Counted from the first letter of the stretch, positions 768-63,110 are shown. The stretch is 64,000 nt of DNA from a virus (IMGVR_UViG_3300022562_001969:22115-86114); one strand, 5' to 3'. Notes: generated by a model not told the origin, from the sequence alone. A program made the numbers and translations.

Positions 768-1724
768 GTGAGTTTTGAGATCAGGCGGAGATCGAAGCCG
801 GTGGGCGTTTTCTCGGACAACGGGACGTTGGGGCTGGATGTTTATTTGAGGCACATTGGCGGCCACGGTTATTTGAGCCGGGCCGGGGAATTGGCGCTAT
901 TTAACCAACTGGATGAGGCTTATCCGGAGCGGCTGGCCGCTAAACCGGGGGCCAGTTTCCCGGTCAACTGCCGGCCGATTGTCGCTGAAATCTCCGGCTA
1001 TTATTACAAATTGGTGGTGGCGGTGGCCAACGGCTACAAAGGGGGCCACACCCTCCCTTTCGCCGATCTCATCCAGGCCGGCAATGAGGGCCTGCTGCGG
1101 GCGATCTGGCGCTTTGATCAATCTCGCGGCCATCGCTTTTCCACCTACGCCACCTATTGGATCAGGCAGGCTGTTCTCCGGGCCATCCCGGAGCAGGGTC
1201 GCGCCATCCGGCTGCCGGTTTACCAATATAGCCGCTGGGTGCAGATCTGCCAATTGATAGATAATGGGGATCGGGATCAGGAGCCGGATTGGGCGGAAAT
1301 CGCCCGGAAAGTCAGCACCGCCGAGGCCCCGGTTACACCGGGGGGGGCGGTCCAGACCTTCCACCTGGGGCTGCGGTCGTTGACAGTCTCGCTGGATGAG
1401 CAATGGTACCCGGAGGAGGAGGAGACCGATAAATACGCGACAATTGCCGCCGAAACGCCGGGCGCGGAAGCGCTGATGGAAAAGATGGACGCCGCCGAAG
1501 TCATTAACCGGGCTTTAGATAAGCTGCCGGCCCGGCTGGCCAAAATCATCAGCCTCCGCTTTGGCCTGTCCGGGGACGCCCCGCTGATCCTGGAAGATAT
1601 TGCCAAAAAGTTTGGTCTGACCCGGGAGCGGGTCCGCCAACTGGAAAAGGAGGCGCTGGTGATGCTGCGCCAAAATGGCGACCTGGCCTGTTTGGTCGCG
1701 AAAAGTGAGACTGAAGATGGCTGA
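768..1724 (+). CDS. Sigma-70 family RNA polymerase sigma factor (RpoD/RpoS-like)
   Basis: Region 2 DLIQAGNEGLLRAIWRFD...FSTYATYWIRQA; region 4 LEDIAKKFGLTRERVRQLEKEAL. Confidence 0.95.
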   Translation: MSFEIRRRSKPVGVFSDNGTLGLDVYLRHIGGHGYLSRAGELALFNQLDEAYPERLAAKPGASFPVNCRPIVAEISGYYYKLVVAVANGYKGGHTLPFADLIQAGNEGLLRAIWRFDQSRGHRFSTYATYWIRQAVLRAIPEQGRAIRLPVYQYSRWVQICQLIDNGDRDQEPDWAEIARKVSTAEAPVTPGGAVQTFHLGLRSLTVSLDEQWYPEEEETDKYATIAAETPGAEALMEKMDAAEVINRALDKLPARLAKIISLRFGLSGDAPLILEDIAKKFGLTRERVRQLEKEALVMLRQNGDLACLVAKSETEDG

Positions 1725-3363: not shown

Positions 3364-3984
3364 GTTTCAATCTCTCATTCGAGATAATCGGCCTTTGAAC
3401 CTGACGCAAAAAGCGGCGCAAAAAATGGCGCAGATTGAGTTTCAATCTCTCATTCGAGATAATCGGCCTTTGAACAGCATCTAACCACATCTAGCAATAG
3501 GCAAAAAAGAGGTTTCAATCTCTCATTCGAGATAATCGGCCTTTGAACATAAAAATAGTATACCATAAATTTGCCGAGTGTGCAGTTTCAATCTCTCATT
3601 CGAGATAATCGGCCTTTGAACTGATGTTAAGATTGTGGGGACGGTGGCCAGCTTGTTGTTTCAATCTCTCATTCGAGATAATCGGCCTTTGAACCAGATA
3701 ATGGCCAAGGTTGCCAAGTATTACGGTGTGTTTCAATCTCTCATTCGAGATAATCGGCCTTTGAACAGGACAAATGAGCGGAATTGTAGAGGTTGTAAAC
3801 GGGTTTCAATCTCTCATTCGAGATAATCGGCCTTTGAACAGTGACGATCCACTAGCAGGCGCAACTTTTTAAGGAGTTTCAATCTCTCATTCGAGATAAT
3901 CGGCCTTTGAACGCGGGCGCAATTGGATGAGGCCATCAATGAGGCGGGTTTCAATCTCTCATTCGAGATAATCGGCCTTTGAAC
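3364..3984 (-). CRISPR. CRISPR array 1: 9 identical 37-nt repeats, 8 spacers (35-38 nt); subtype uncertain (I-D/I-B/III-like)
   Basis: Repeats start at 3364, 3439, 3512, 3585, 3658, 3730, 3803, 3876, 3948; the minus-strand repeat ends ATTGAAAC; no leader and no cas genes. Confidence 0.97.
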
Positions 3985-4019
3985 AGCGGTCGTCCATCGT
4001 CTATCGTCGCCGGTCGTCG

Positions 4020-4472
4020 TCAGTTCCGCAGGCGCTTAATCCGGTCCATCTTGCGGGTCATGAGGCCGCTCAAGCGATAAATGGCCTTAACCACGATAGC
4101 CTGACGGCTGAGGCCGAGCAGCAGGCCGTCGTGATAGCTGGAAAGGTCGCCGATGTGGGAGGCGATGGCCGGGCTGTGGAAGCCGGGCCGGGGGTAGTCG
4201 TGGGCGAAGCGGTTGCGGATGTGGTTAATGATCGTCAGGTCGTCAAAGTCGGCCTGGTCTATCAGGCCGGTGCAGAGGGCCAGCCGGCGGCGGGTGACCG
4301 CCCGTTCCAGGAGGGCCGTTTTCTGGGTTTTGCTGCCCAGGAGGGCCACGTCCAGGAGTCGGTAGAGGACCTGGTCCAGGTGGGCCGCGCCGCGAATGGC
4401 GATCTCGGAATCGATGACGGTCTTGATTTGGGGATTGGTTTGGGGCTGTGCTAAAATAGATACAGCTTGCAT
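4020..4472 (-). CDS. MtlR-like / HEPN-family protein (copy 1)
   Basis: IRNRFAH (RxxxxH) motif and DSEIAIRGAAHLDQ; start at ATG 4472 after AAGGAG; paralog at 58464. Confidence 0.8.
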   Translation of the reverse strand: MQAVSILAQPQTNPQIKTVIDSEIAIRGAAHLDQVLYRLLDVALLGSKTQKTALLERAVTRRRLALCTGLIDQADFDDLTIINHIRNRFAHDYPRPGFHSPAIASHIGDLSSYHDGLLLGLSRQAIVVKAIYRLSGLMTRKMDRIKRLRN

Positions 4473-4545
4473 GGTAAGTTCACTCCTTACTGTGCTTGTT
4501 AGAGTTCCGTCGGTGGTATCAACACCGGCGGAATTCGTCATTTAA
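4449..4545 (+). ncRNA. Putative cis-antisense RNA over the start of HEPN copy 1
   Basis: Extended -10 TGcTAAAAT 4449-4457; hairpin TTCCGTCGGTG...CACCGGCGGAA 4505-4533. Confidence 0.55.
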
Positions 4546-4554
4546 TTGACCTTC

Positions 4555-4583
4555 ATTATAAATCTGTTTGGGGAAAAGGTCAA
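4555..4583 (-). promoter_or_regulatory. Sigma-70 promoter for HEPN gene and array 1
   Basis: TTGACC-17-TATAAT. Confidence 0.8.
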
Positions 4584-4595
4584 AAAGCGGGGGGG

Positions 4596-4613
4596 ATGTT
4601 CGCACGCGAACAT
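4596..4613. promoter_or_regulatory. Palindrome TGTTCGCnnGCGAACA, copy 1 of 6 (others 7723-7738, 9316-9335, 39130-39145, 48431-48454, 58321-58340)
   Basis: Directly visible; four copies lie next to sigma-70 promoters. Confidence 0.7.
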
Positions 4614-4615
4614 TC

Positions 4616-4687
4616 GACGATAGACGTTGATAATTGACAATTGACAATTGACAATTGACAATGGTCGTCCATCGTCCATCGTCGTCT
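4616..4687. repeat. Heptamer tracts: GACGAT(G/A) inverted pair around (TTGACAA)n
   Basis: Example of the dispersed heptamer families described in findings. Confidence 0.85.
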
Positions 4688-4704
4688 AATTGATTTCATG
4701 CGCG

Positions 4705-4733
4705 TTGACAGGCGGGCATAATATATGTATCAT
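4705..4733 (+). promoter_or_regulatory. Promoter giving a leaderless mRNA for the RHH protein
   Basis: TTGACA-17-TATCAT, ATG 7 nt after the -10, no SD. Confidence 0.7.
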
Positions 4734-4740
4734 ATGTAAT

Positions 4741-4911
4741 ATGACGACAGAACGCGAACCGGAAAAAATGAAACCGTATCCTGTAAATTTTCCGCCCAGC
4801 CTATGGCTGGCTGCCCGCCGTAAAGCGGGGGTGCGTTCGCTGGCCGGGATTATCCGGCGGCTGATAATAATGTGGTTAAGGGAGGAGGTTGTTCTGATGG
4901 ATGATGAATAG
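4741..4911 (+). CDS. Small ribbon-helix-helix (CopG/Arc-like) regulator
   Basis: 56 aa, PYPVNFPPSLWLAARRKAG-SLAGIIRRLI beta-alpha-alpha pattern. Confidence 0.65.
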   Translation: MTTEREPEKMKPYPVNFPPSLWLAARRKAGVRSLAGIIRRLIIMWLREEVVLMDDE

Positions 4912-4954
4912 ATAATAGATAATTGTCAATTGTCAATTATCAATTGTCAATTAT

Positions 4955-5061
4955 AAACAGAGGGCCATCCGGGTGCAACCGGTGGCCCCGCTTACATACT
5001 ATATCAGGGGCACAGCATGCAAGGTACTTTTTATTTTACCAACGATAAAAAAAATAGACAA
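4955..5061 (-). ncRNA. Putative cis-antisense RNA over the start of ORF 5017-5205
   Basis: TTGTCT-17-TAAAAT (5061-5033); terminator GGGCCACCGG...CCGGATGGCCCTCTGTTT. Confidence 0.55.
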
Positions 5062-5205
5062 ATGCCGCCGCCCCCTTTCAATTTTTTGTTAGTTTTCCCC
5101 ACAGGCGTGGGGGTGAACCGGGAGGAGCTATGGCAAAGCGTAGGGTTAAGTGCCCGCAGTGCGGGTATAGACACATCATCAACATTCCCAGTCGGAAAGC
5201 GATGA
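5017..5205 (+). CDS. Small leader ORF reading through a solitary CRISPR repeat
   Basis: 62 aa; has the antisense architecture; overlaps the next gene. Confidence 0.35.
   Translation: MQGTFYFTNDKKNRQMPPPPFNFLLVFPTGVGVNREELWQSVGLSARSAGIDTSSTFPVGKR
5092..5120 (+). CRISPR. Solitary type I-E repeat abutting an RBS
   Basis: GTTTTCCCCACAGGCGTGGGGGTGAACCG immediately followed by GGAGGAGCTATG. Confidence 0.92.
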
Positions 5206-5882
5206 CGGTGGGCGTGCGAGCCAAACGGATCACGGCCAACCAGTTTGAATACACCCTAAACGGTCCCGCCGAAATCTCGGATGACGCCAGATTTAGCACG
5301 GTGGCTGACGACCTGGTCCTGTCCGGCGCGTTTGGCGGCGCGTTGGGAGCCGTGGCGGGGGGCGCGGTGGCTGTCTTCGCGCCGGAGTACGCCCTGCACG
5401 GGGCCGGCGTGGGCATGAGCGCCGGGGTAGCCCTGGCCTGGGGCTGGTTGTGCGCGGAACATAACCAACGGCTGAAACGGGTGTTGCCCTGGTTCGTTGA
5501 GCAGCGGCAAAACTGGAAACGGCCCGAGCTGGGGGACGATGGCGAGATCAGGCTGACGGTAGATCATCTCCATCGGGACAGCTACAGCGAGCAAGGCCGC
5601 TCCATCGCCCTCCTGGGGACCCTACCGGTCGATGTGGAGCGCTTCCGGGCCTGGGCGCAAGGGGCCATCCGGGGCGATAGCCTGGCCATCAAACACTGGA
5701 CGGGAGCCGAACGGCCTTTCAGCCGGGATGAGTATGATCGCCTGCTGCTCAAAATGAGGGCGGCCAATATAGTGACCAATCTGCCGGGGAAGGGCAATAC
5801 CCTGACCAATCCCGGCAAGCACGCTCTGAAACGTATCCTGGCCGAGACCCCCTCCCCTACCCCGGCTGAGGAGCGTGCGTGA
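5130..5882 (+). CDS. Hypothetical membrane protein (Zn knuckle, 2 TM, C-terminal wHTH-like)
   Basis: CPQC motif, Gly/Ala-rich TM hairpin, GKGNTLTNPGK tail; strong RBS. Confidence 0.7.
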   Translation: MAKRRVKCPQCGYRHIINIPSRKAMTVGVRAKRITANQFEYTLNGPAEISDDARFSTVADDLVLSGAFGGALGAVAGGAVAVFAPEYALHGAGVGMSAGVALAWGWLCAEHNQRLKRVLPWFVEQRQNWKRPELGDDGEIRLTVDHLHRDSYSEQGRSIALLGTLPVDVERFRAWAQGAIRGDSLAIKHWTGAERPFSRDEYDRLLLKMRAANIVTNLPGKGNTLTNPGKHALKRILAETPSPTPAEERA

Positions 5883-6088
5883 TGCCAAAAAGCCCGGAAA
5901 ATGCACGCACGCACGTGCCCGCCCGCTCCAGATGGGGCTATAGCGTCTCCTATTGGCCCAGCAAAAGCGAATTCAGGATTGTTAACTATGGCCAGGGGGA
6001 GCTGATCAAGTCGTTGCTGTTTTGGTGGCGTTTGCGCCGCCATCCCTCATTTAAGAATGTACGATGGTCGTTAATCACTGATTGGTAA
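5879..6088 (+). CDS. Hypothetical protein
   Basis: GTGA overlap with the upstream gene. Confidence 0.45.
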   Translation: MMPKSPENARTHVPARSRWGYSVSYWPSKSEFRIVNYGQGELIKSLLFWWRLRRHPSFKNVRWSLITDW

Positions 6089-6094
6089 GGTGCT

Positions 6095-6910
6095 ATGACA
6101 AAACCAGACAATAAACAGAAACCTTTCATCATCCGCTATAGAGAATTTTGGACCAATGTCCAGGCGATGATCTTCTACCCCTTCCAGAATATCGGCCCTT
6201 TCATTGTGGCCGCTATGCCGGCGCTCTTCACCGGCCATAGCGTCTACACCTGGTACGCGGAAACCAGCGCCGCCTGGCTGGCCATGCTCATTAGCTGCGT
6301 GGTGGCTATTGCCATGGAGGCGATCAATATCAACGTGGTCCATACATCCCTCGATCTTTTTGAGCAAAAACAAAATGGCAAGGGTTGGCTGATGGCCCTT
6401 TTCTCCCTCATTGTAATGGCCCTGGTTTCGACCGTTATCGGCTTCAGTGAAGGGGACCTATCCCCCTTGATCAAGGGGTTGGCCGTCTCCAGCCCCTGGC
6501 TCACCGGCATTGTCTACCTGGCGGTCGGGATGGCGCAGGGCATCCACCAGGAGAAACAGCAAGCCGATTTGGACAGAAACGAGCGGCGTCAATCCGAGGC
6601 GGAACAACGTGAGTTCGAGCGACAATTGAAGCTAAAAGAGATAGACAAAAATCACGAATTACGATTAGCCAAAATTGAAGCGGCTAAAAGTGTTCAATCG
6701 AGTGTCAAGCCAACTGTTCAATCGAGTGTCAAGGGGTTGACACCTGAAGATGTCAAAAACGCTGTTTCCCAATCGGAAAAGCCGGTTAACATTACACAAT
6801 TGGCTAAAGATTTACAAGTAAGCCGGACAACACTTTACACTAAACTGAACGGTCTGGTAGATAGTGGGGAAATGATTAAAAATGGGAACGGTTACGAGGT
6901 AATCAAATAA
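6095..6910 (+). CDS. Multi-TM + coiled-coil + C-terminal HTH protein
   Basis: 4 TM segments, QEKQQADLDRNERRQ coil, NITQLAKDLQVSRTTLYTKL HTH. Confidence 0.8.
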   Translation: MTKPDNKQKPFIIRYREFWTNVQAMIFYPFQNIGPFIVAAMPALFTGHSVYTWYAETSAAWLAMLISCVVAIAMEAININVVHTSLDLFEQKQNGKGWLMALFSLIVMALVSTVIGFSEGDLSPLIKGLAVSSPWLTGIVYLAVGMAQGIHQEKQQADLDRNERRQSEAEQREFERQLKLKEIDKNHELRLAKIEAAKSVQSSVKPTVQSSVKGLTPEDVKNAVSQSEKPVNITQLAKDLQVSRTTLYTKLNGLVDSGEMIKNGNGYEVIK

Positions 6911-6924
6911 TTTATGAAGACCGC

Positions 6925-7059
6925 TTGGTCAAACGCTGTTTATGGTGCAATGGTTTAGGTTATGATACCTACCTGGGCCACACTTGCGATATGTGTAACG
7001 GCAAAGGTGGAAAATGGGAACGGGTGAGGGTACTAGTAGGTGAGGAAGTAATAGAATGA
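6925..7059 (+). CDS. Small DnaJ-type zinc-finger peptide (start uncertain); not in ORF track
   Basis: CLWCNGLG...CDMCNGKG; stop overlaps the next ATG (ATGA). Confidence 0.5.
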   Translation: MVKRCLWCNGLGYDTYLGHTCDMCNGKGGKWERVRVLVGEEVIE

Positions 7060-7547
7060 GAAAAATAATGCTCTTGGCATTAACTTTAATTATCTTGACA
7101 GGCTGCAATAGTAGCGTCAAAAACGCTAAAGCCGAAGCCATACGTCACCAGACTGACCGCGCAGACGATTGGCACATTGCCAGATTAGAGGAATCCGAGG
7201 CTTTAATGCCAGTCAGAATTATGGTCAAGGAAGTGCTTTGGTATACCGGTATGGTTAGCGGTATCCTTCTCCTTTTAGGTAGCGGCCTGGCCGGTGGCTG
7301 GTGGATGGTAGGCACATCAGTCAACAGGGTGAAATTTCACCGGGTCAGTCTGGATGTCCAGACAAGGCAGTATCCACTGTTGGTTTATGGCAACGGCCGG
7401 CGGGTCTTCAACCCGAATACCGGCGAACGGCTATTGTTGGCCGAAAACAGTGAAGCGTCTTTGACCCGGATCGAGGCCAGTACAAAGGTACAACTGGCGG
7501 GGATGCTACCGGATCGGATGATAATAGATGATCCTCATCATCACTAA
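7056..7547 (+). CDS. Putative lipoprotein with an extra TM segment
   Basis: MRKIMLLALTLIILTGC lipobox. Confidence 0.75.
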   Translation: MRKIMLLALTLIILTGCNSSVKNAKAEAIRHQTDRADDWHIARLEESEALMPVRIMVKEVLWYTGMVSGILLLLGSGLAGGWWMVGTSVNRVKFHRVSLDVQTRQYPLLVYGNGRRVFNPNTGERLLLAENSEASLTRIEASTKVQLAGMLPDRMIIDDPHHH

Positions 7548-8011
7548 CCCCACCAGGCGCAGCCGGTCATCGAGCGGCAGATTATCATGGTGGTGGGGCC
7601 GGGTCAGTCGCGGGGGGAGATGTGGCGGCAGTTAAGCGCGAGCTATGACGATAGACGACGGTAGACGATAGACGATAGACGGCCGGTGACCGTTTAGCTA
7701 TCGTCCATCGTCCATCGTCGAATGTTCGCGTGCGAACACTTACCTTAGATCTACTCTTCGCCGGTGGCGTAACCCAGTATCTGACCTATCGGCCGCCCGG
7801 TGACAATCTCCAGCAAAGTGTCAGTGTCATCCGGACCAACCTCATCAAATCGCCTCGCCAAATGCGATACAACCTGAAATACGGCTTCCTGGACGGCCAG
7901 GGCCTCGGCCGGGTCTATCTGGTCGGCCGGAGTGTTACCAGCACTCGGGCGGCCTGCCAATCAAATCCTTACCAGGTGGACGCGGATGAGGGGAGTTTTA
8001 TGGTTAGTGAG

Positions 8012-8419
8012 TCAAGGTTGTGAGGTAGGGTCTTGAGGACCTTGGATGATCATTTGTTCACCGCTCTCTGCTTCGGCCAGAGCGCGAAGCAACCGTTCCT
8101 GGAAACGCCGGCTATCTTCCTGGTCTACATCCGACTTTTTGAACATTTTTATATAAAACGCCTTGTAGGAACATTGCCAATGGCTACCAACATAATAAAC
8201 CCGGTGACGGCCAATTCTGATTTTGCGAACATTTTCCAAACCTGGCGGCATCCGCTTCAGCTTTTTATCGGAGGCGTCTAACGACCCCCTCCGCTCAGAG
8301 TTGGCCTCGTCGGCAAAACCAAAGAGCCTTTTTTCGATCATTGTCTTATCTCTGCTATTGGCGCGTTGAAGCTGGTCCAGTTGTTTATCGACCGTCTTAT
8401 TTATCGAGATCGAGCACAC
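8012..8419 (-). CDS. RelE/ParE-like toxin
   Basis: VDKQLDQL...LKRMPPGLENVRKIRIGRHRVYY. Confidence 0.65.
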   Translation of the reverse strand: MCSISINKTVDKQLDQLQRANSRDKTMIEKRLFGFADEANSERRGSLDASDKKLKRMPPGLENVRKIRIGRHRVYYVGSHWQCSYKAFYIKMFKKSDVDQEDSRRFQERLLRALAEAESGEQMIIQGPQDPTSQP

Positions 8420-8903
8420 GATACGTCTCCTGATCTTTAAAGGCTTTTTCTAATTGGATCAGTAAGGTATCATCCCGGATCAGGCGCTCATCTTCTAACG
8501 CATCAAGATCGATCCCCCGGATATTGAATTGAGCCATCTTCCGCAAGAAAGAAATGGCGCTATTGATCTGGGCGAAGGATAGATTAGGGAATTCTCCCTG
8601 TAATTCGTCATAATCTATAAGGCCGTCCAGGGCCTCCACAAATTCGTAGAGGGAGACTGATTGCCCGTCGTTCCCGACCAATACCGGGAGAAATCCAAGG
8701 TCTGGGTTCAGGTGAATATAGCCGCCGGTGGCTTTATTCCACGCCTCAAAAGAACTAAGGACGCTTGTACGGGTAGTTAGTTTCAGGCTGTCCCTTAGAA
8801 ACCGCTCAATCAGGTAATTTGTTTGGCCGGAGGGGCCACTATCCTGAACAATAAAAACAAGTCTGTTCTCAGCCTCGGTTGTTTTGACAATAGGATCATT
8901 CAT
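8397..8903 (-). CDS. DUF433-containing antitoxin-like protein
   Basis: NPDLGFLPVL...DELQGEFPNLSFAQINSAISF. Confidence 0.65.
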   Translation of the reverse strand: MNDPIVKTTEAENRLVFIVQDSGPSGQTNYLIERFLRDSLKLTTRTSVLSSFEAWNKATGGYIHLNPDLGFLPVLVGNDGQSVSLYEFVEALDGLIDYDELQGEFPNLSFAQINSAISFLRKMAQFNIRGIDLDALEDERLIRDDTLLIQLEKAFKDQETYRVLDLDK

Positions 8904-9225
8904 CAGCTGTTTGTCCTTCCAAAGCTTTACGCGCTTCAGGCGTTAATCGATTTTCCGGATTAGCCTCAATCTCTCCAAATAGTTGCTCATAGGCATTGAG
9001 GCTATTTGTTAAAGCATCGGCAACACGTTTGGCATGGGGGACGCTCAGATAAATTTTCGCCACGCCAACCGCCCCATCAGATTCTACATTCTTCTTTAAG
9101 CCAAAGTGCAAGACAATTTCTTCGGCGGTCACTTTTATTTCCATCAGGTCCGAGTAACACACCTTTTGATCAGGCGCATCAAGGATTTTTTCTTTCCTTT
9201 TCGCCACTTTGTCATCATCGGCCAT
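8896..9225 (-). CDS. DUF3467-like protein
   Basis: YSDLMEIKVTAEEIVLHFG...KIYLSVPHAKRVADALTNSLNAYEQLFGEI; GGAGGA RBS before ATG 9225. Confidence 0.75.
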   Translation of the reverse strand: MADDDKVAKRKEKILDAPDQKVCYSDLMEIKVTAEEIVLHFGLKKNVESDGAVGVAKIYLSVPHAKRVADALTNSLNAYEQLFGEIEANPENRLTPEARKALEGQTADE

Positions 9226-9435
9226 TATGGTCCTCCAAACTGGACTGTATTTTGTTCTGTTTATAACTATACTATAGCCGATCATTATCTGGCAAAAACG
9301 ATAAATCTTTCGTCGAATGTTCGCACGCGAACATTGACGATGGACGATTGACGACCGCTGTCTTTTAGTTGTGGCTGGTTTGGTGTCGGGTGGCTCTTTG
9401 GCAGTTTGGACGATGGACGATGGACGACCGCCGGT

Positions 9436-11085
9436 TTATATCTCCAACCGCCCTTGTGTTGGCCCTGCTCTTTCTTCTCTTTGGGCTTGTTTGAAGGTTC
9501 CATAGGCGGGCGGCATTTGTACACTTGCCCCCCCTAACAACGCCTCAATGGTAAGTATCTGAATTTTAGGGTATTTTTGGCCCCAGGCTACAGCCTCATA
9601 AAAACCGGCTGACACCGCCTCCTGGATCATCGGCTGCGTTGGTTCTTCCAGGGTGATAAAAACGCCGATAGCCGCCTTTTCCCGTTCAACCGTCCCAACC
9701 AGATCACGAATATCCCGGCTTGACACCTTGCCGCTCTTGACTTGCGCTAAAACCCGCTTAGGTTTGCCTTTTGCCGTATCAATAAAGGTGATAACCCCAT
9801 CGATCCCTTTATCCGCTCCTTTTTTGCCCTTTTTACTGCCCTGGGTCGCTTTGCCCGGTCTGGCCCTAACTAACGACAAGGCCCACCATTCAAACTGAAA
9901 GCGGTCTTGTTCTGCCAGAAAACGAGCAGAGCCTATTGTTTCAGGCTCGCCCTTGACTTCAAACGTTGTGTCCGGAAAGGCTTCTTGTAGACGATATTTT
10001 TGCAAGGCAATAGATAAATGGGTGATGTCAATACCTATCCACTTTCGGCCTAGTTTTTCAGCGGCTACTATCGCAGTACCACAACCGCAAAATGGATCAA
10101 GGACTACATCACCAGGGTTGCTACTGGCTGAAATGATACGTTCTAGTAAAGGTAAAGGTTTTTGTGTAGGATAACCCAGACGTTCAGCATCAGAACTTTG
10201 CAAAGGATTTATATCAGCCCAAATGTTTGTAATAATTGTTCCTTTTTGTTCGTTCAAAAAACGTTTAAGCGCAGGACGTTTACTAAAATCATAGGAACCA
10301 TCTTTGTGACGTGGATAATAAATGCGCCCTTCATCGTGTAACTTTTGCATGGTTTCAGGTTTATAACGCCAACCTTTAGCAGGATACGGAAAGCCTAGCC
10401 ATTCGTACATCATATTGGGTCTAGGATTTGGACTTGTCATATTATCCAAACGATATAAACCGCGTCCATTATTATCATCAAATCGGTAATTTTTTTGGAT
10501 ATATTCCAAATCATATGGTCCATATTGAACAATAAACAGGTTTTTTTTGGAACGTTTATAAAAAAGAATTATGTCAGCAATATCAGCAAATTTCGTCTTT
10601 GCGTCACTATGGGCTGACTGTCGTTTCCAAATAATTTCATTGCCAAAGTTCTCAGCCCCAAAAATAGTATCAAGGATGACCTTCAAATAATGGCTTGCTG
10701 TTGGGTCACAATGCAGATATAAGCTACCAGTAGGGTTCAATACCCGATGAAGTTCAACCAATCGACTAGCCATCATAACCAAATAAGCCATCATTTGGTT
10801 AGCGCCAATAAAATCACGCATGGCCCCAATCATCTTACTTATATGATCTGGTGATTCTGTTATCAATTCGTGATAGGTTTCCTCAGCGGCCGCGTTCCAG
10901 TGCCAAGTATCATCAAAAGCCGTTATCTGCGCCTGGCTATCTTGCCCACTTTCATCTTTGAATAAGACATTATAGCTGCGCTTTGAGTTAAAGGGGGGGT
11001 CAAGATAGACTAAATCAATACTTTCATCTGCTATGTAATCACGTAGAATTTGAAGGTTATCGCCATAATAAAGGGTATTTTTCAT
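9436..11085 (-). CDS. N4/N6 DNA methyltransferase fused to a C-terminal Mrr-like endonuclease domain
   Basis: DLVYLDPPF, VLDPFCGCGT, GADKGIDG...QVKSG; start MKNTLYYGDNL. Confidence 0.92.
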   Translation of the reverse strand: MKNTLYYGDNLQILRDYIADESIDLVYLDPPFNSKRSYNVLFKDESGQDSQAQITAFDDTWHWNAAAEETYHELITESPDHISKMIGAMRDFIGANQMMAYLVMMASRLVELHRVLNPTGSLYLHCDPTASHYLKVILDTIFGAENFGNEIIWKRQSAHSDAKTKFADIADIILFYKRSKKNLFIVQYGPYDLEYIQKNYRFDDNNGRGLYRLDNMTSPNPRPNMMYEWLGFPYPAKGWRYKPETMQKLHDEGRIYYPRHKDGSYDFSKRPALKRFLNEQKGTIITNIWADINPLQSSDAERLGYPTQKPLPLLERIISASSNPGDVVLDPFCGCGTAIVAAEKLGRKWIGIDITHLSIALQKYRLQEAFPDTTFEVKGEPETIGSARFLAEQDRFQFEWWALSLVRARPGKATQGSKKGKKGADKGIDGVITFIDTAKGKPKRVLAQVKSGKVSSRDIRDLVGTVEREKAAIGVFITLEEPTQPMIQEAVSAGFYEAVAWGQKYPKIQILTIEALLGGASVQMPPAYGTFKQAQREERAGPTQGRLEI

Positions 11086-11461
11086 TGGTTGACCACCTGA
11101 CCAGGCCAGGCTATAACAAATGGCAAGTGAACGGTTCACCATCATGCCCGTGGAGAATACCCTGATTTTATCCGAGTTTGGGATGACAGGCAAAAAAGAC
11201 GGTCGTCCATCGTCCATCGCCCATCGTCGGTTACTTGTTTTCAGGCCAAAAGGGTATATAATTGATTTAGCGACATTTTGGCTTGATAGTCTGATCAAGA
11301 TATAATAGTAAAAGAAGCTCCAACCTCTGACAGGCTATCTGTCCAAAGTGTCGCAACTTGAGAGGTCTGGGGCTTCTTTTTGGTGCTTCAGGATTTTCCG
11401 TGGGAACCACTATATCGCCATACAAGAAAAGTAAGCCAACTTTCAAAGATAGGTTCGCAAG

Positions 11462-13513
11462 ATGACTGAAAGCCGCCAACCTGGTAGGAATTTTAGGGAT
11501 GAATTACTTAAGATTTTGTCAGGGATGACCGCTTTGGATGACCCTGACAACCGATATCGGCTATTGGACAAGTTGCCACTAGAGGCAGTAGCAACCATAC
11601 GACGCAATTCTGCTAAGGGGACCGACCTATACAATATCGTTCAGGCTGCCGAAGGATGGGGACAATTGACCTCTGGAGAGTGGGCCTTGGTCGTTATCGC
11701 CCAAAACGCCCTATCTCTAGTTAAAGGAACCCACCCCGGTCGTCAGCTAGAGGCTCTTTTAGCTGAAAGGGTTATTCATCAGGCCAAGCCAGGCCGGCAG
11801 ATCCCCCTTGATCTGCCAGCGCGAGAGGAGAATTTTATAGACCGTAAGGACGAACTGGTATCTCTACTCACCGAATTACAACCAGGACGAGTAGTCACTT
11901 TGACTGGGCCGGGGGGCATGGGCAAGACTGCCCTGGCCGCGGAAGCCGTTGGCCAACTGGTGGTTGATCATAAGCCCCCTGAGCGTTTCCCGGATGGCAT
12001 CTTCTTTCATAGCTTTTACAACCAACCCCAAGCCGGTTTAGCCCTGGAAAGTCTGGCCCTGGCCTTTGGCGAGGAAGCCAGGCCAACGGCCCAGGTAGCG
12101 GCACAACGGGCGTTGAGCGGCCGGCAGGCCTTATTGGTGTTGGATGGCGCTGAAGATGCGGATGACTTGGCGGCCGTGTTAGCGGTGCGCGGGGGGTGTG
12201 GGGTTTTAATAACCAGCCGTAATCGGGGCGATGCGCCGGCCGTGTTGCAAGACCTGGCGCCCCTCAAACAGCAAGACGCCCTGGACTTATTACAACGCTG
12301 GGCTGAAGCGCAGCTTGATGACCAGGCGGCGGCCATTGCCATCTGCGAACTGGTGGGGAGGCTGCCGCTGGCGGTGCGTCTGGTAGGGCGGTATCTGCGT
12401 GAGACCGGGGAGACGGCCAGCGAGTATCTAGCCTGGTTACAAGAAACCCCGTTAGAGGCCCTGAACCAGGGGCGGCGACGCGAAGAAAGTATACCTGTCT
12501 TACTTGAGCGCAGTCTAAAGCAGGTCAGTGAGGCGGCGCGGCAAGTGTTGGCGGTGGCCGGCCGGCTGGCGCTGGCCCCGCTGCAACAAGAGGTGATGGG
12601 GGCCGCTTTGGCAGCCGAAGCGCGTGAGGTGAGACAGTGGTTAGGAGAATTGGTGCGCTATGGCTTGCTGAGCCGGGACAAAGGGCGTTATGCCATCAGT
12701 CACGCCCTCATTCACACCTACGCCAGTGAGCGGCTCAATGTGGCGGAGGAGATGGTCGAGCGGTTGGTGGCTTTCTATGTCGCTTTGGCTGAACACTTTA
12801 GCCAGCAAGGATTGGCAGGCTACCAGGCGCTTGATGGGGAGCGGCCTCACCTGCTGCGCTTGATTGCAGGCTGCGCGAAAGGAGATGATTGGCTGGGGGT
12901 TCGCAAGCTGGTCTGGGCCATTGATGGTTATTTGTCAATTCAGGGTCACGCCAGCGAACGACAAACTGCCCTAGCGACAGGGCTAACAGCCGCCCAACAA
13001 CTGGGCGACCGCCAAGATGAAGGGGCATTTTTAGGCAGCCTGGGGACCGCCTACTACGACCAGGGGGAGCTGGACAAAGCCATCGCCCATTCTCAGCAAG
13101 CCCTGGTCATCCACCGCGAGATTGGCTACCGCCAGGGGGAGGCTGCTGTTTTAGGCTACCTGGGAACCGCCTACAGCATCCAGGGGGAGCTGGCCAAAGG
13201 CATCGACCATTATCAGCAAGCCCTGGTCATCCACCGCGAGATTGGCTACCGCCAGGGGGAGGCTTATAATTTAGGCATCCTGGGTCTCGCCTACCGCGCC
13301 CAGGGGGAGAGGGCCAAAGCCAGAGAATACTTAGCCCAGGCGCTCACTATTTTTGAGGCGATCAAATCGCCCCAGGCAGACGCAATTCGTGAACAGTTGA
13401 CTATGCTGACTATGTTAGGCCGCCTCCATATACTCTTAGCAATGTGTCAGGCCATCTACGAGAAAGGATTGATGAGGCAGCTTTTGCCGCTTTTCAAAAG
13501 GCTTATTCACTAA
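11462..13513 (+). CDS. EAD-like domain + STAND (NB-ARC) NTPase + TPR protein
   Basis: GPGGMGKT Walker A, LLVLDG Walker B, GRLPLA motif, TPR repeats (HREIGYRQGEA); N-terminal helical EAD8-like segment. Confidence 0.88.
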   Translation: MTESRQPGRNFRDELLKILSGMTALDDPDNRYRLLDKLPLEAVATIRRNSAKGTDLYNIVQAAEGWGQLTSGEWALVVIAQNALSLVKGTHPGRQLEALLAERVIHQAKPGRQIPLDLPAREENFIDRKDELVSLLTELQPGRVVTLTGPGGMGKTALAAEAVGQLVVDHKPPERFPDGIFFHSFYNQPQAGLALESLALAFGEEARPTAQVAAQRALSGRQALLVLDGAEDADDLAAVLAVRGGCGVLITSRNRGDAPAVLQDLAPLKQQDALDLLQRWAEAQLDDQAAAIAICELVGRLPLAVRLVGRYLRETGETASEYLAWLQETPLEALNQGRRREESIPVLLERSLKQVSEAARQVLAVAGRLALAPLQQEVMGAALAAEAREVRQWLGELVRYGLLSRDKGRYAISHALIHTYASERLNVAEEMVERLVAFYVALAEHFSQQGLAGYQALDGERPHLLRLIAGCAKGDDWLGVRKLVWAIDGYLSIQGHASERQTALATGLTAAQQLGDRQDEGAFLGSLGTAYYDQGELDKAIAHSQQALVIHREIGYRQGEAAVLGYLGTAYSIQGELAKGIDHYQQALVIHREIGYRQGEAYNLGILGLAYRAQGERAKAREYLAQALTIFEAIKSPQADAIREQLTMLTMLGRLHILLAMCQAIYEKGLMRQLLPLFKRLIH

Positions 13514-13800
13514 AGACAATGCGTGAGGCAGCAACTCAGTTTCCGGCAATGACTGAGGAGACGTTTCGGGACGCTGTAAAGGCGTTCATAGATGAGCAAG
13601 TGCCAAAGAACTATATATTTTCGTTTAAGCAACGATTGATGTGGTTAGGTCAACTTCTTGATGAGTGGCCAGATGAACCAGTCTCAGGATCGTTAAAAAA
13701 GGAAACTTCCGCTGTGAGATCTATAATCAAGCCAAAATCGCTTAAAGAGCGGAAGAAGATTAAAGCGCAAAGGAAGTGGTGGCAGTTTTGGAAGAAATGA
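13444..13800 (+). CDS. Hypothetical protein with KWWQFWKK tail
   Basis: Amphipathic C-terminal motif; start uncertain. Confidence 0.5.
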   Translation: MSGHLRERIDEAAFAAFQKAYSLKTMREAATQFPAMTEETFRDAVKAFIDEQVPKNYIFSFKQRLMWLGQLLDEWPDEPVSGSLKKETSAVRSIIKPKSLKERKKIKAQRKWWQFWKK

Positions 13801-13852
13801 GGTTGATTTTTAGCTTTGGACGATGGACGACCGGCGGCGACTTAAGACTGCG

Positions 13853-13981
13853 GCCGCCCATCGTCCATCGTCCATCGTCGCCAAGGCGAAGCGACCACCG
13901 ACGACACAACACCGCCGCCCATCGTCCATCGTCCATCGTCGCCAAGGCGAAGCGACCACCGACGACACAACACCGCCGCCC
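13853..13981. repeat. 61-bp tandem repeat (about 2.1 copies) built on TCGTCCA heptamers
   Basis: Period 61 visible; inverted relative of the 15900-16120 units. Confidence 0.9.
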
Positions 13982-13993
13982 GCCGTCCATCGT

Positions 13994-14935
13994 CTATCGT
14001 CCATCGTCCGTCGTCAGCCCCCGGTACGCCCGGGCCCGGGCCTCATCCCGGCCGCGCAGATAGACCGAAGTCGTGGCGATGTCCGCATGGCCCAATTGGT
14101 CGCGCACCTTGTCCAGGGAGACGCCGGCTTCGAGGGCCAGCAAAGCCGAGGTGTGGCGCAGGGCGTGAAAGTAAGCCCGGGGCAAGCCGGCCGCCCTGGC
14201 CCGGCGCTTGAACAGTTGGCTCACCCCGGAGGCGGTCAGGCCGGGCCCCGGGCGGCCCCAGCGCCAGGCCGGGAAGACATGAGCGGGCCGGTGGCCACCC
14301 TCGGCCAGATAACGTTGCCAGGCCCACAAATCCCCTTTGACCGCCAAATTAAAATAGACCACCCGCCCCCGGCGCGTCTTGGCCGTCTCCGCCGCCACCT
14401 CGGCGGCCAGCTCGGCCAGGCGCAGTTGCTCCCAGCGCAGGGCGGCCACTTCCCCGGCCCGGCAGCCGGTGACCAGGGCAAAATGGACCAGGGCCAGGTC
14501 GCGCAGCTCACGCCCCTCGCCGGCGGCGGCCGCCCGGCGCAACTGGGCCAGCAGGCGCTCCACTTCGGCCCGGCTGAGGGCCACCGGCGGCAGGTGGGGC
14601 CGGGGCGGCAAGAGGCGCAATTGGGCAATTTGCCGGGTCGGGTTGCGGTTGGCCTCAATGATCTCTAATTGTTCCAAAAAGTTGAAAAATGCGCGCAGGT
14701 GGGTATAATAGGTGCGCACCGTCACCTCTCCACCGGCGGTGGAGTCTATCCAGCCCATTACCTGACCGGCCGTGACCGGCCAGGCCGGGCCGATGTAGTC
14801 GGCGAAGCGGCTTAAGATATTGGTGTAGTTCTGTAGCGTCTTCGGCCGCCACGAACGTCTCTTGAGAGTGATAAAACCTTTAATGTGCCCTCCCAGAATG
14901 GTATCCGGGAGGGACACAGAAGGCGGCGTAGCCAT
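13994..14935 (-). CDS. Tyrosine recombinase/integrase (XerC/D-like)
   Basis: TGCRAGEV, HALRH, LGHADIATTSVY catalytic motifs. Confidence 0.95.
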   Translation of the reverse strand: MATPPSVSLPDTILGGHIKGFITLKRRSWRPKTLQNYTNILSRFADYIGPAWPVTAGQVMGWIDSTAGGEVTVRTYYTHLRAFFNFLEQLEIIEANRNPTRQIAQLRLLPPRPHLPPVALSRAEVERLLAQLRRAAAAGEGRELRDLALVHFALVTGCRAGEVAALRWEQLRLAELAAEVAAETAKTRRGRVVYFNLAVKGDLWAWQRYLAEGGHRPAHVFPAWRWGRPGPGLTASGVSQLFKRRARAAGLPRAYFHALRHTSALLALEAGVSLDKVRDQLGHADIATTSVYLRGRDEARARAYRGLTTDDGR

Positions 14936-14957
14936 ACGATTGGAGGCTCCGGAGAGA

Positions 14958-15038
14958 CTTCGGAGTCAAAACCTTTAGGTTTTTCTTCGGAGTCGAAACC
15001 TTTAGGTTTTTCTTCGGAGTCAAAACCTTTAGGTTTTT
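14958..15038. repeat. Three tandem 27-bp repeats upstream of the integrase
   Basis: CTTCGGAGTC(A/G)AAACCTTTAGGTTTTT at 14958, 14985 and 15012. Confidence 0.95.
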
Positions 15039-15079
15039 CAAGCCTGAAGGCTTGGACTCCTCTATTCCGGAGTCGAAAC

Positions 15080-15108
15080 CGGTTCACCCCCACGTCTGTG
15101 GGGAATAC
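15080..15108 (-). CRISPR. Solitary type I-E repeat upstream of the integrase
   Basis: GTATTCCCCACAGACGTGGGGGTGAACCG on the minus strand. Confidence 0.92.
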
Positions 15109-15179
15109 GGGCTCCGGTTAATGCCCAAACCTAAAGGCTTGGACTCCTTTGAGCCTTTGAGCCTTTGAGCCTAAAATAA

Positions 15180-15212
15180 AAACCTGACCGGTTTTTGAAA
15201 CCAGTCAGGTTT
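15180..15212. repeat. REP-like hairpin or terminator
   Basis: AAACCTGAC-CGGTTTTTGAAACCA-GTCAGGTTT; (CCTTTGAG)3 adjacent at 15146-15172. Confidence 0.55.
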
Positions 15213-15221
15213 GTTACCTCG

Positions 15222-15614
15222 CTACGCCGCCGTGCGTTGCTGGTATTCCACCAGCATCTCGACCGGATCGCGGCCGGCCACGCGGCCCAGGGCCTCTTCC
15301 CAGTCGCCGCTGTGGAGGATGGCGTTGAGGGATTCGACGGCCTGCACCAGGGCCACCTCAAGGTCCAGCAGGGCGACGATGTCCACCGCCCCACTCGCCT
15401 CTCTGGTAGGGTTGGCGGCGAAGTCAGTCAGGGCCGCAATGGCCTCGACCAGTCTCGCCAGCCCGGGCAACTCAGCGCCGGGGGCTACTTCTGCTTCCGG
15501 CGCCAGCTCGCCCAACGCCAGGCTGGCCGCCAGCAGACCGGTTGCCGCCAGAAATCCGCGACGGTCTATTTGGTTGTTGGTTTGGGGGTGTGCTAAAATA
15601 CGTTCAGTTCTCAT
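15222..15614 (-). CDS. Hypothetical protein with twin-arginine-like signal
   Basis: DRRGFLAATGLLAASLAL; GAGGAG RBS; N-terminus ILAHPQTNNQI resembles HEPN copy 1 ILAQPQTNPQI. Confidence 0.7.
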   Translation of the reverse strand: MRTERILAHPQTNNQIDRRGFLAATGLLAASLALGELAPEAEVAPGAELPGLARLVEAIAALTDFAANPTREASGAVDIVALLDLEVALVQAVESLNAILHSGDWEEALGRVAGRDPVEMLVEYQQRTAA

Positions 15615-15675
15615 GGTAAGCTCCTCTTACTGTGTGAATTAGGGCCGGTTTGATGTTTCAGCATCAGGCCGGCTC
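15591..15675 (+). ncRNA. Putative cis-antisense RNA over the start of 15222-15614
   Basis: TGcTAAAAT 15591-15599; hairpin GCCGGTTTGATG...CATCAGGCCGGC. Confidence 0.55.
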
Positions 15676-15799
15676 GTTCGTTTAAAGTTGACCACATTAT
15701 ATGCCCAAACTCAGCATTAGTCAAATCCGGCTCAGGATTTATTTTTTTACGACGCTTGCGGCTGGCCGCCGGGCGACGTATACTAATAGTAGCTCTCAT
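15611..15799 (-). CDS. Small basic protein
   Basis: AAGGAG RBS, ATGA overlap with the next gene. Confidence 0.5.
   Translation of the reverse strand: MRATISIRRPAASRKRRKKINPEPDLTNAEFGHIMWSTLNERAGLMLKHQTGPNSHSKRSLP
15696..15724 (-). promoter_or_regulatory. Sigma-70 promoter
   Basis: TTGACT-17-TATAAT. Confidence 0.8.
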
Positions 15800-15868
15800 G
15801 GTATCTCCTTACTGTGAGAGTATGGTTTCGCCTCGTTTTTTAGCCCGCGAGGCGAAGCCTGTTTTTTT
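15756..15868 (+). ncRNA. Putative cis-antisense RNA over the start of 15611-15799
   Basis: TTGCGG-17-TATACT; terminator GGTTTCGCCTCG...CGAGGCGAAGCCTGTTTTTTT. Confidence 0.6.
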
Positions 15869-16160
15869 GGACGATAGACGATGGACGATGGACGGCGGGC
15901 GGCGGTTTGACGGGCGGCGGTCGTCCATCGTCGGTCGTCGCTTCGCCTTGACGACGATAGACGATGGACGGCGGTTTGACGGTCGTCGGTCGTCCATCGT
16001 CGGTCGTCACTTTGCCTTGGCGACGCTAGACGATAGACGATAGACCGCGGTTTGACGGTCGTCTATCGTCCATCGTCGGTCGTCACTTCGCCTTGGCGAC
16101 GCTAGACGATAGACGATGGATGGCTGTATGGCATCGTCGGTCGTCGGTCGTCGGTCGTCG
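15869..16160. repeat. About three imperfect ~70-bp units built on GACGAT(G/A)/TCGTCCA heptamers
   Basis: CGGTTTGACGG...CTTCGCCTTG(G)CGACG repeated. Confidence 0.85.
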
Positions 16161-16263
16161 TTCCGCCAGGCGTCAACTTGTTTGGATAGCATACCTCTAC
16201 GTAGGTCTCCCGTTAGGTTTCCGTTTTGCCGGTTTGGTAAAACGGCCTTGCTGGGGGGGGATT

Positions 16264-16293
16264 ATCGTATCATAGGTGGGGGGGATCTGTCAA
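16264..16293 (-). promoter_or_regulatory. Leftward promoter of the integrase-side operon
   Basis: TTGACA-18-TACGAT with extended TG; C7 run in the spacer. Confidence 0.65.
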
Positions 16294-16381
16294 GCGGTTT
16301 TAAGCTTCGCGACGATGGACGATAGACGACCGGCGACTAACGACGACCGTCTCTTTTGTTTATTTGTTTATTTGTTTATTT

Positions 16382-16740
16382 ATTTCAATCCACGCCCCCC
16401 GTGAGGGGAGCGACTTCGGTGAAGGAAAAAATTCCTTAACCGATGGGGTTTCAATCCACGCCCCCCGCGAGGGGAGCGACATAAAAACAGGCTTCGCTTT
16501 GCGGGCTATTTCAATCCACGCCCCCCGCGAGGGGAGCGACTTGGCCGGTCAAGGTGATCCGCCAACCGGTTGCGGTTTCAATCCACGCCCCCCGCGAGGG
16601 GAGCGACTTGCTGAAACGTTCGTGGTAGACTGTTTCAGTTTGTTTCAATCCACGCCCCCCACAAGGGGAGCGACGCGACCAGCTCATCACTATCCAATTC
16701 AAAAAGCGTTTCAATCCACGCCCCCCACAAGGGGAGCGAC
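16382..16740 (-). CRISPR. Type I-C CRISPR array: 6 repeats (33 nt), 5 spacers (33, 27, 34, 34, 33 nt)
   Basis: GTCGCTCCCCT(CGC/TGT/CAC)GGGGGGCGTGGATTGAAA(C/T); repeats start at 16382, 16448, 16508, 16575, 16642, 16708. Confidence 0.96.
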
Positions 16741-16910
16741 GGCAACATCTGGGTATACCCAGATTATACATAATATATATTGTGGCGCCTTTTTTGTCAA
16801 TCGGACAACCGGCTCAATATTGCTCGCTAAATGTTCTTTTTTGGGGTGGTTAAGGTACAAAATAGGCGCGAACCCTCCGGGCAATGGCTGGGCGCTTGGG
16901 GTTCGCAAAC
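16741..16910 (-). promoter_or_regulatory. Type I-C leader with promoter
   Basis: GCGAACCCC...GGGTTCGCGC inverted leader motif 16866-16907; TTGACA-17-TATATT 16800-16772. Confidence 0.85.
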
Positions 16911-16927
16911 CCAGATTAAAGGATGAT

Positions 16928-17010
16928 CGGTTCACCCCCACGCCTGTGGGGAATACTCGTCCATCGTCCATCGTCGCGAAGCGGTTCACCCCCCCGCCTG
17001 TGGGGAATAC
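16928..17010 (-). CRISPR. Type I-E mini-array: 2 repeats, one 25-nt spacer
   Basis: GTATTCCCCACAGGCG(T/G)GGGGGTGAACCG at 16928-16956 and 16982-17010. Confidence 0.95.
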
Positions 17011-17197
17011 GCTCCAAAACGTTATAAAGTTTTAATGTTACAACCGTTCGCTAGCTTAGAACACGGATATGGGGAGGGTAACGGATTTTCGACCTGGCTA
17101 TAAGTAATCCGTTACCTTCTGCCAATCCGCTGTTCTCAAGCTAACCGTGCAATAGCAGCAACGCCCAAACGGTCGTCCATCGTCCATCGTCAGCCGT

Positions 17198-17503
17198 CTA
17201 TCGTCCACCGTCCATCGTCACCCCCGGGCAGCCTTCGACAAGCTCAGGCTGCTGCGGTCGTCCATCGTCGGTCGTCCATCGTCGGTCGTCCATCGTCGCC
17301 CCCCGGGCGGCCAGCGCCGTATTAAGCGCCTTGAGTTCCGCCTCAAGATCACCTATTTTTTTTTGCAAAGCGGTTTCGTTGGCGGCCATCTTGGCCAACC
17401 GCTTCTCCAGGGTAATATTCAGGAGAAGCGCCTGGCTTAATAGTGAGCCCCAGCGTTGGCCGAGGGTATCGACCAGCTCCAAAATTTGCTGTTCGGTCAT
17501 CAT
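17198..17503 (-). CDS. Small coiled-coil protein (C-terminus encoded by repeats)
   Basis: ATGA overlap with the upstream gene. Confidence 0.55.
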   Translation of the reverse strand: MMTEQQILELVDTLGQRWGSLLSQALLLNITLEKRLAKMAANETALQKKIGDLEAELKALNTALAARGATMDDRRWTTDDGRPQQPELVEGCPGVTMDGGR

Positions 17504-58207: not shown

Positions 58208-58351
58208 TAGGCTGGCTGATTTATCGGATAGACCGGCTGATTTCGACGATAGACGATAGACGATGGACGACCATTGACAATTGTCAATTATCAATTATCA
58301 ATTATCAACGTCTATCGTCCAATGTTCGCGCGCGAACATTCCCCCCACTTC

Positions 58352-58380
58352 TTGACCTTTTCCCCAAACCGATTTATAAT
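58352..58380 (+). promoter_or_regulatory. Promoter of HEPN copy 2
   Basis: TTGACC-17-TATAAT, nearly identical to 4555-4583. Confidence 0.8.
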
Positions 58381-58391
58381 GGAGGCCAACT

Positions 58392-58488
58392 AAAAAGCGT
58401 CGAGGCCTGGCAGTGTCGCAAGCACCACCAGACCTCTAACAAGCACAGTAAGGGAGACTTACCATGCAAGCTGACCATAATTGTAACA
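58392..58488 (-). ncRNA. Putative cis-antisense RNA over the start of HEPN copy 2
   Basis: TGtTACAAT 58488-58480; hairpin GAGGTCTGGTGGTG...CACTGCCAGGCCTC followed by GACGCTTTTT. Confidence 0.55.
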
Positions 58489-58943: not shown

Positions 58944-58968
58944 AAAGCGGGCCGAGTCTGGATAAGGG

Positions 58969-59517: not shown

Positions 59518-59567
59518 TAAAATACCTCCTGTGCTTAAAAAATATCCGGTCGTCTATCGTCCATCGT

Positions 59568-61182: not shown

Positions 61183-61233
61183 AATTACCTCGCCATCGTC
61201 CATCGTCCATCGTCCATCGTCCATCGTCGGCTG

Positions 61234-63077: not shown

Positions 63078-63110
63078 ACAGTCTAACCCTCTTATTATCA
63101 AAAGACTTTT

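Follow-up and report, generated by a model that had tools for sequence, protein, structure and literature searches.

The mini-arrays of the Saccharolobus portogloboviruses SPV1 and SPV2 (PMC11656645) are carried by viruses that lack cas genes, their repeats are identical to those of cellular arrays, and their spacers nearly match viruses of the same kind, while the carriers' own copies differ from the spacers. According to reviews, viral mini-arrays have spacers that are mostly aimed at related viruses (PMC11656645). A type I-C array that we studied in a sediment siphophage shares these features with SPV1 and SPV2. It differs from them in having five spacers rather than one or two, in the presence of two further repeat types in the same genome, in that no target virus was found, and in that one spacer, S2, is 6-7 nt short and has a self match in a leader.

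In Neisseria, the I-C Nezha, Gabija and 'CRISIS' regulators (bioRxiv 10.1101/2024.12.27.630466) consist, like S2, of a short spacer between two repeat-like units, with a partial match ahead of the regulated gene and a flank other than TTC (TTA there, TTT here). The I-C crRNA-like RNAs (crlRNAs) that regulate Gabija and other defence genes are 57 nt long (11 + 25 + 21) and have TTC or TTA flanks (10.1101/2024.12.27.630466). These units lie, however, inside cellular cas operons and target the promoters of host defence genes, whereas S2 belongs to a normal-looking phage array, its match precedes an orphan ORF with no recognisable promoter, and its seed is broken at position 8.

Phage-encoded short-spacer units that are stacked in array-like fashion, as S2 is, have been described as viral Cracr (bioRxiv 10.1101/2024.10.29.618823). 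Cracr arrays direct the Cas proteins of the host to its cas or toxin promoters, and nine I-C two-spacer arrays are among those found in phages (10.1101/2024.10.29.618823). Host Cas proteins load these units and bind DNA with them but do not cut it, and there are documented Cascades that have fewer backbone subunits. Viral Cracr copy the host CreR/CreA guides and silence the host cas/creT promoters, whereas S2 matches phage DNA and no host site was found for it. Viral regulators of type I-E have spacers of 24 and 21 nt, and the validated 24-nt unit has a discontinuous 20-bp match. The solitary repeat units known as Racr (PMC10651486) are viral copies of host repeats without cas genes, much like the lone I-E repeats in our phage, but a Racr needs neither spacer nor target, whereas S2 has a specific 24/27 self match. 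RNA anti-CRISPRs are known for types I-C, I-E and I-F (PMC10651486). A literature search found no paper on a guide by which a phage controls genes of its own.

The phage is a complete 86-kb siphophage (IMG/VR record of 86,114 bp, rated complete, with 144-bp direct terminal repeats). We analysed a window of 64,000 nt that corresponds to positions 22115-86114 of this record; coordinates are those of the window, and coordinates marked "genome" are counted separately. From about 17.2 kb onwards the minus strand carries tail genes (tail fibre, Sipho_Gp37, Dit, tape measure). The genome has CRISPR repeats of three kinds, I-C, I-E and a 37-nt repeat. Profile searches for Cas1 and DevR-type Cas7 gave no match in the complete 86-kb genome; the Cas8c profile gave no match in the phage either, but its control was also silent. 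A canonical I-C array adjoins cas3-cas5c-cas8c-cas7 and adaptation genes; that of the phage is an orphan. It is made up of the following elements.

16382-16740, minus strand: type I-C-type array of 6 repeats of 33 nt and 5 spacers.
S1 16415-47, S2 16481-16507, S3 16541-74, S4 16608-41, S5 16675-707, all minus strand: the five spacers.
16508-16540, minus strand: repeat R3, which supplies the 11-nt 5′ handle for S2; it ends in ...ATTGAAAT, the T form, and has the loop TCGC.
16448-16480, minus strand: repeat R2, intact, which supplies the 3′ hairpin for S2.
16772-16800, minus strand: promoter-like TTGACA-17-TATATT, 11/12 to consensus, directly upstream of the array.

The repeat takes the I-C form GTCGCTCCCCTCGCGGGGGGCGTGGATTGAAAC/T when read on the minus strand, which indicates that the array is transcribed on that strand and that each guide carries the plus-strand sequence of its site. 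In all six copies we found the marks of the I-C type, namely a length of 32-33 nt, a GC-rich hairpin and a 3′ tail ...GGATTGAAAC/T that gives an 11-nt 5′ handle. Genomes of Chloroflexota and Bacillota have the same repeat in 31 cellular loci, in some of them in as many as 68 copies. The phage units are a mosaic, with C or T as the last base and GTG, GCG or ACA in the loops; the T form makes up 112 of the 295 cellular repeats, the C form is common there too, and the ACA loop was not seen in the cellular loci checked. This mosaic of natural variants suggests exchange with cellular arrays. We considered that the final T of R3 might be a base derived from a PAM, and rejected this, the T form being widespread as a natural variant. 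Other viral contigs have lone copies of this I-C repeat: in the AT-rich contig IMGVR_UViG_3300050335_000039 (L013; 4825-4923) a single repeat has the same 33-nt sequence on both sides and a terminator hairpin afterwards, and lone copies are likewise found in contigs L011 and L012.

The five spacers measure 33, 27, 34, 34 and 33 nt. Four of them thus have the 33-34 nt expected of type I-C (about 33-35 nt), and the fifth, S2, falls below the whole range of the cellular spacers that accompany the same repeat (n = 270, 30-42 nt, mode 34, 0/270 shorter than 30 nt). That S2 is shorter than its 33-34-nt sister spacers had been pointed out from the sequence alone, and this we confirmed; the accompanying statement that it lacks one Cas7 unit (6 nt) is right against a 33-nt spacer, where the deficit is 6 nt, but against the cellular mode of 34 nt the deficit is 7. 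An impression that the spacers are unusually rich in hairpins was dropped, as only S1 lies in the tail of the cellular distribution.

16481-16507, minus strand: spacer S2, 27 nt, in crRNA sense AGCCCGCAAAGCGAAGCCTGTTTTTAT.
15842-15868, plus strand: protospacer-like self site, 24/27 identical to S2, with a TTT flank at 15839-15841.

The central observation of the sequence-only reading, that the S2 crRNA (reverse complement of 16481-16507) agrees with 15842-15868 at 24/27 positions, with guide positions 1-7 perfect and TTT directly upstream, is reproduced in every part. The three mismatches fall at guide positions 8 (A/G), 10 (A/G) and 26 (A/T), so that positions 11-25 are perfect as well. A search of the window allowing 3 mismatches returned only the spacer and the self site, 100 shuffles returned none, and a scan of the whole genome at up to 6 mismatches found no further copy of S2. 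The 24/27 self match is not attributable to chance. A gapped alignment to 15842-15875 reaches 25/27 with a 7-nt gap; by our estimate its one extra match has a chance expectation of about 1 in 5, and the gap may at most be one possible arrangement. The distance from spacer to self site is 613 nt, and the site lies in a 5′ leader.

Like known regulatory RNAs of this kind, S2 is a sub-canonical spacer (27 nt against a mode of 34) between repeat units, here two intact ones. The PAM-flanked, unbroken seed that marks such RNAs is another matter: TTT is acceptable as a flank, but pairing stops before position 8, and S2 has 7 contiguous PAM-proximal pairs where the filter of the Cracr collection asks for at least 9. 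In the I-C system of Legionella, TTT is the second-best PAM for both interference and acquisition, and a single seed mismatch weakens interference, no more (PMC5602111). In the I-E system of E. coli, interference persists with guides of more than 20 nt (PMC5159557). For I-B (at 24 bp) and I-F1, repression without cutting is described with shortened guides, and in I-F1 truncated R-loops bind but leave cleavage untriggered (PMC10989794, PMC7296934).

The surroundings of the self site include a terminator-like hairpin, a short ORF and the gene of a 130-aa protein.

15824-15868, plus strand: hairpin (15824-15859) followed by the T-run CUGUUUUUUU, resembling an intrinsic terminator.
15614-15799, minus strand: ORF 15799, 62 codons, with a strong Shine-Dalgarno sequence.
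15222-15614, minus strand: 130-aa protein whose N-terminus weakly resembles a TAT signal (Pfam E 0.005, short of the curated cut-off).
15696-15724, minus strand: promoter-like site of the 130-aa gene.
13994-14935, minus strand: tyrosine integrase.
16264-16293, minus strand: promoter-like TTGACA-18-TACGAT with TG before it, from which transcripts could run across the S2 site and into ORF 15799.
15868-16170, no strand assigned: three to four long GACGATG/CATCGTC heptamer hairpins between the promoter-like site at 16264-16293 and the S2 site.
4472 (minus), 15614 (minus) and 58464 (plus), and genome 9048 (minus): starts of four genes with a common leader.

The S2 site covers the loop end, the 3′ arm and the T-run of the hairpin at 15824-15859. 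Its earlier description as the 3′ arm of a plus-strand terminator, 43 nt upstream of an ATG (15797-15799, minus strand), therefore agrees with our mapping, to which the T-run is to be added, as does the statement that the guide has the plus-strand sequence and is antisense to the minus-strand transcript, the array being read on the minus strand. Folding of the plus-strand RNA of 15786-15875 gave two hairpins with −40.8 kcal/mol (z −5.9), against −21.5 kcal/mol (z −2.6) for the minus-strand RNA of the same segment; the minus-strand fold is weaker because one G-U pair turns into a C-A mismatch. On the minus strand, the hairpin segment 15824-15868 falls in the 5′ leader of ORF 15799.

Whether ORF 15799 is a gene bears directly on any regulatory role of this site. 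A comparison with 1.8 billion representative proteins gave no homologue of it, and over its 3′ half it overlaps the promoter and leader, both conserved, that belong to the 130-aa gene, so that it may be no real gene. For the 130-aa protein itself no homologues were found outside the phage's own genome, where a 66% identical paralogue lies at genome 8671-9048 (minus strand), with promoter and leader sequences conserved between the two. Four genes of the phage have a leader of common design, in which TTGACY-17-TATAAT is followed by a hairpin, CACAGTAAGGAG and ACCATG. In front of ORF 15799 the hairpin, CACAGTAAGGAG and ACCATG are present and TTGACY-17-TATAAT is absent, with heptamer repeats in the promoter's place. 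No consensus promoter is found at the S2 site, and the closest promoter-like site, at 16264-16293, lies some 400 nt upstream. Hairpin elements of the GACGATG/CATCGTC type are also scattered between genes at many places (3990-17303 and 58239-63494).

The same array contains a second near-self match, which serves as a control.

60778-60810, plus strand: self match of S1 (33 nt) at 30/33, inside the ParB-like/methyltransferase ORF 60058-61224 (minus strand).

All S1 mismatches are at guide positions 2-4, in the seed, and the flank is ACC, which is not a PAM. S1 would encode ...SLTDG where the phage copy has ...SLTEKG, and since the differences alter the encoded peptide (TEKG vs TDG), a diverged homologue explains them better than escape by point mutation. 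Since the S1 site is coding sequence, is flanked by ACC and is mismatched at seed positions 2-4, this match cannot be regulatory and has to stem from the phage's lineage. S1 shows that the I-C array holds spacers from the phage's own lineage and that the phage's own copy differs in PAM and seed. S3-S5 have no self match in the phage at up to 25% mismatches. Near-self matches, with 3 mismatches each, thus involve 2/5 I-C spacers, against 0/8 spacers of the 37-nt-repeat array, which gave no self match in the phage at up to 25% mismatches.

3364-3984: array of 9 repeats and 8 spacers, with the 37-nt repeat GTTTCAATCTCTCATTCGAGATAATCGGCCTTTGAAC.

A lone tenth copy of this repeat lies at 1743-1779, 1.6 kb from the array, and all ten copies are identical.

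A perfect protospacer in another phage was part of what the sequence-only reading had named as speaking against it. We carried out this check and found no perfect S2 protospacer elsewhere, in collections in which three proteins of the phage found no relatives. With positions 8-10 unconstrained, the S2 core has no match in IMG/VR; the exact core has none in JGI metagenomes, and S2 with R at positions 8 and 10 has none in five candidate hosts and 401 Chloroflexota genomes. The cores of S1, S3 and S5 have no match in IMG/VR. Comparison of the whole array with cultured phages gave matches to the repeat only, and the target region was blank there too. Of the two marks of viral mini-arrays, repeats identical to those of a host CRISPR-Cas system were found (the 31 cellular loci), and PAM-flanked protospacers in related viruses were not found in the collections searched. 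In the other direction, none of the spacers of the 31 cellular arrays with the same I-C repeat matches the phage. One groundwater Chloroflexi genome has the I-C repeat together with an I-E repeat that is 3 mismatches off that of the phage.

Relatives of the phage proved equally hard to find by its proteins. A search with the integrase gave only distant matches, and the best match of the ParB/methylase was at 67% identity, with the S1 variant in none of the matches. Because the integrase, the 130-aa protein and the ParB/methylase all failed to find relatives, the blank protospacer searches weigh little. The stretch is present in one marine-sediment run, which is probably the sample of origin. 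In two runs of another sediment study there are short contigs (150-400 nt) with 92-96% likeness to parts of 15192-15898 and of 16162-16314; one of these, 158 nt long, covers the S2 site and differs from the phage at 6 of 151 nt. On this sequence likeness, related phage populations exist in other sediment samples. Host-type I-E repeats are abundant in the runs with these contigs.

S2 is not the only short guide in this part of the genome.

16928-17010, minus strand: I-E-type mini-array of two 29-nt repeats and one 25-nt spacer, the spacer being a heptamer element.
14958-15108, minus strand: lone I-E repeat (15080-15108), then the 12-mer GTTTCGACTCCG.

The phage has two lone I-E repeats in addition to the mini-array. 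The 25-nt I-E spacer compares with a spacing of 32 nt in a related cellular array; with S2 at 27 against a mode of 34, each of the two thus falls short of the mode by 7 nt rather than 6. The I-E spacer is one arm of a generic heptamer hairpin and matches at 24/25 in three places, while its heptamer element recurs many times in the genome. Its best PAM-flanked match (16305-16329, 24/25, AAG flank) adjoins the promoter-like site at 16264-16293. The 12-mer GTTTCGACTCCG stands behind AAG in three tandem 27-nt units that end 22 nt before the integrase start codon. Judged from the sequence, the matches of the 25-nt I-E spacer and of the lone-repeat 12-mer look more regulator-like than that of S2.

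We favour the reading that S2 is a spacer derived from the phage's lineage and has no present function at the self site, whether it was aimed at relatives, was acquired from the phage itself and then attenuated, or was captured with a host array; we regard this reading as about evenly poised between right and wrong. S2 would then stem from the ORF-15799 leader hairpin of a relative, from the phage itself, or from a piece of a host array raised against the lineage. The cas-less phage would transcribe the array from its own strong promoter, and the Cas5c and Cascade of a host I-C system would process and load the guides. The likely payoff would be the exclusion of related phages with matching sites, together with some draining of host Cas proteins. 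The phage's own sites would be tolerated because they differ where it matters: the S1 site by its non-PAM flank and three seed mismatches, the S2 site by the mismatches at 8 and 10, the second-choice PAM and a guide short by 6-7 nt. Since TTT can work as an I-C PAM, tolerance of the S2 site would rest only on the mismatches and the short length. The shortness of S2 would not be by design but reflect damage or attenuation, and its mismatches at positions 8 and 10 look like a pattern of escape or divergence, unlike the perfect seed of the known regulators. The two near-self matches among the five I-C spacers, the related contigs of the second sediment study and the mosaic of repeat units also speak for this reading. 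Several observations run against it: no perfect protospacer was found for S1, S2, S3 or S5 in IMG/VR, nor for S2 in the other collections searched, a length of 27 nt is outside the range of the 270 cellular spacers and has to be treated as an accident, and neither the location in a leader nor the two other short, PAM-flanked guides in the same locus would be predicted.

The length and the location lend themselves to a regulatory explanation, in which S2 is a phage-encoded crlRNA that parks the host I-C Cascade on the phage's own leader. Cas5c would cut out an RNA of about 59 nt (11 + 27 + 21), and a Cascade with one Cas7 fewer would bind the TTT site; the R-loop would be too short or too mismatched for Cas3, and the complex would block transcription from 16264-16293, or read-through from the array, into ORF 15799. 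With I-C crlRNAs known to have short spacers and TTT being the second-best PAM, such a roadblock guide is mechanistically possible. The other mechanism that had been suggested, an antisense mimic in which the crRNA acts on the mRNA, has nothing in type I biology to support it, and we set it aside because the effectors of type I systems have DNA as their target. In favour of the roadblock, the length of S2, rare in real arrays (0/270), is typical of regulators (25 nt in the 57-nt Gabija crlRNA of type I-C, 24 and 21 nt in the viral I-E regulators), guides of reduced length repress without cutting in I-B and I-F1, and TTT is a usable PAM. The site is in a leader, 43 nt from the start codon, where the guide pairs with the non-template strand of minus-strand genes; both flanking repeats are intact, the array promoter is 11/12, and two neighbouring short guides have cleaner, AAG-flanked matches. 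The pairing itself argues the other way, with only 7 contiguous PAM-proximal pairs. Flipped-out guide positions are 6, 12 and 18, and the mismatches at 8 and 10 are not among them. Moreover, I-E guides longer than 20 nt interfere, so that a short guide does not by itself make a binder-only complex (we found no I-C data on this point); ORF 15799 is without homologues, may be no gene and lacks the TTGACY-17-TATAAT of the four sibling leaders; and S1 is a near-self match in the same array that makes no regulatory sense. The regulatory interpretation of the sequence-only reading thus finds partial support, in its geometry and in the short length, and no less likely than a regulator is the alternative that it had offered, a spacer of a relative's making that has since degraded. 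We consider the parked Cascade possible but on the doubtful side. A broader form of this idea, which we put forward only tentatively, would have the three short guides (S2, the I-E 25-mer, and the 12-nt seed that follows the lone I-E repeat) park working host Cascades on leader and promoter sites of the ORF62-ORF130-integrase region and make its expression depend on them, such that genes of a temperate phage are switched by host CRISPR activity, for example in response to the anti-CRISPR of a superinfecting phage.

Two further explanations take S2 out of the leader altogether. The array could be a decoy whose repeats soak up host Cas5c, Cas7 and Cas8c, with no role for the content of the spacers, S2 included. 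The lone I-E repeats in the phage, the absence of Cas1 and DevR-type Cas7, the lone copies of the same I-C repeat in other viral contigs and the described RNA anti-CRISPRs of I-C, I-E and I-F (PMC10651486) are all consistent with a decoy, and mixed repeat variants could serve several host variants; a decoy, however, needs no five different spacers of near-canonical length, and it leaves two non-random self matches unexplained, which makes it improbable. Alternatively, S2 could be a Cracr whose real target is the promoter of a host I-C cas or toxin gene, the phage site being a look-alike. Short-spacer Cracr arrays, including the nine I-C two-spacer ones, have precedent in phages, but the 24/27 self match is beyond chance and neither the five candidate hosts nor the 401 Chloroflexota genomes contain an S2-like site, and we regard this explanation as very improbable. 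In pursuing it, we looked for the S2 seed beside a PAM in loci that flank arrays and for a repeat-like unit upstream of cas5c in three candidate hosts; neither was found.

Should S2 be merely derived from the lineage, as we favour, the locus would be one more, though rich, case of host-type arrays used in competition with relatives, and its value would lie in a whole genome with three repeat types, lone repeats and no cas genes. Should S2 and its two neighbours instead guide the control of the phage's own genes, this would be the first case of a virus that controls its own genes by way of the CRISPR surveillance complex of its host. Regulation by crlRNA and Cracr would then extend from host targets to viral self-regulation, and the locus would provide a natural example of type I guides that are tuned by length and mismatch to bind without cutting.

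Elsewhere in the window, the phage encodes its own sigma-70-type factor (768-1724, plus strand), a protein with EAD8, NB-ARC/NACHT and TPR parts (11462-13513, plus strand) and a DNA methylase fused to an Mrr-like nuclease domain (9436-11298, minus strand).
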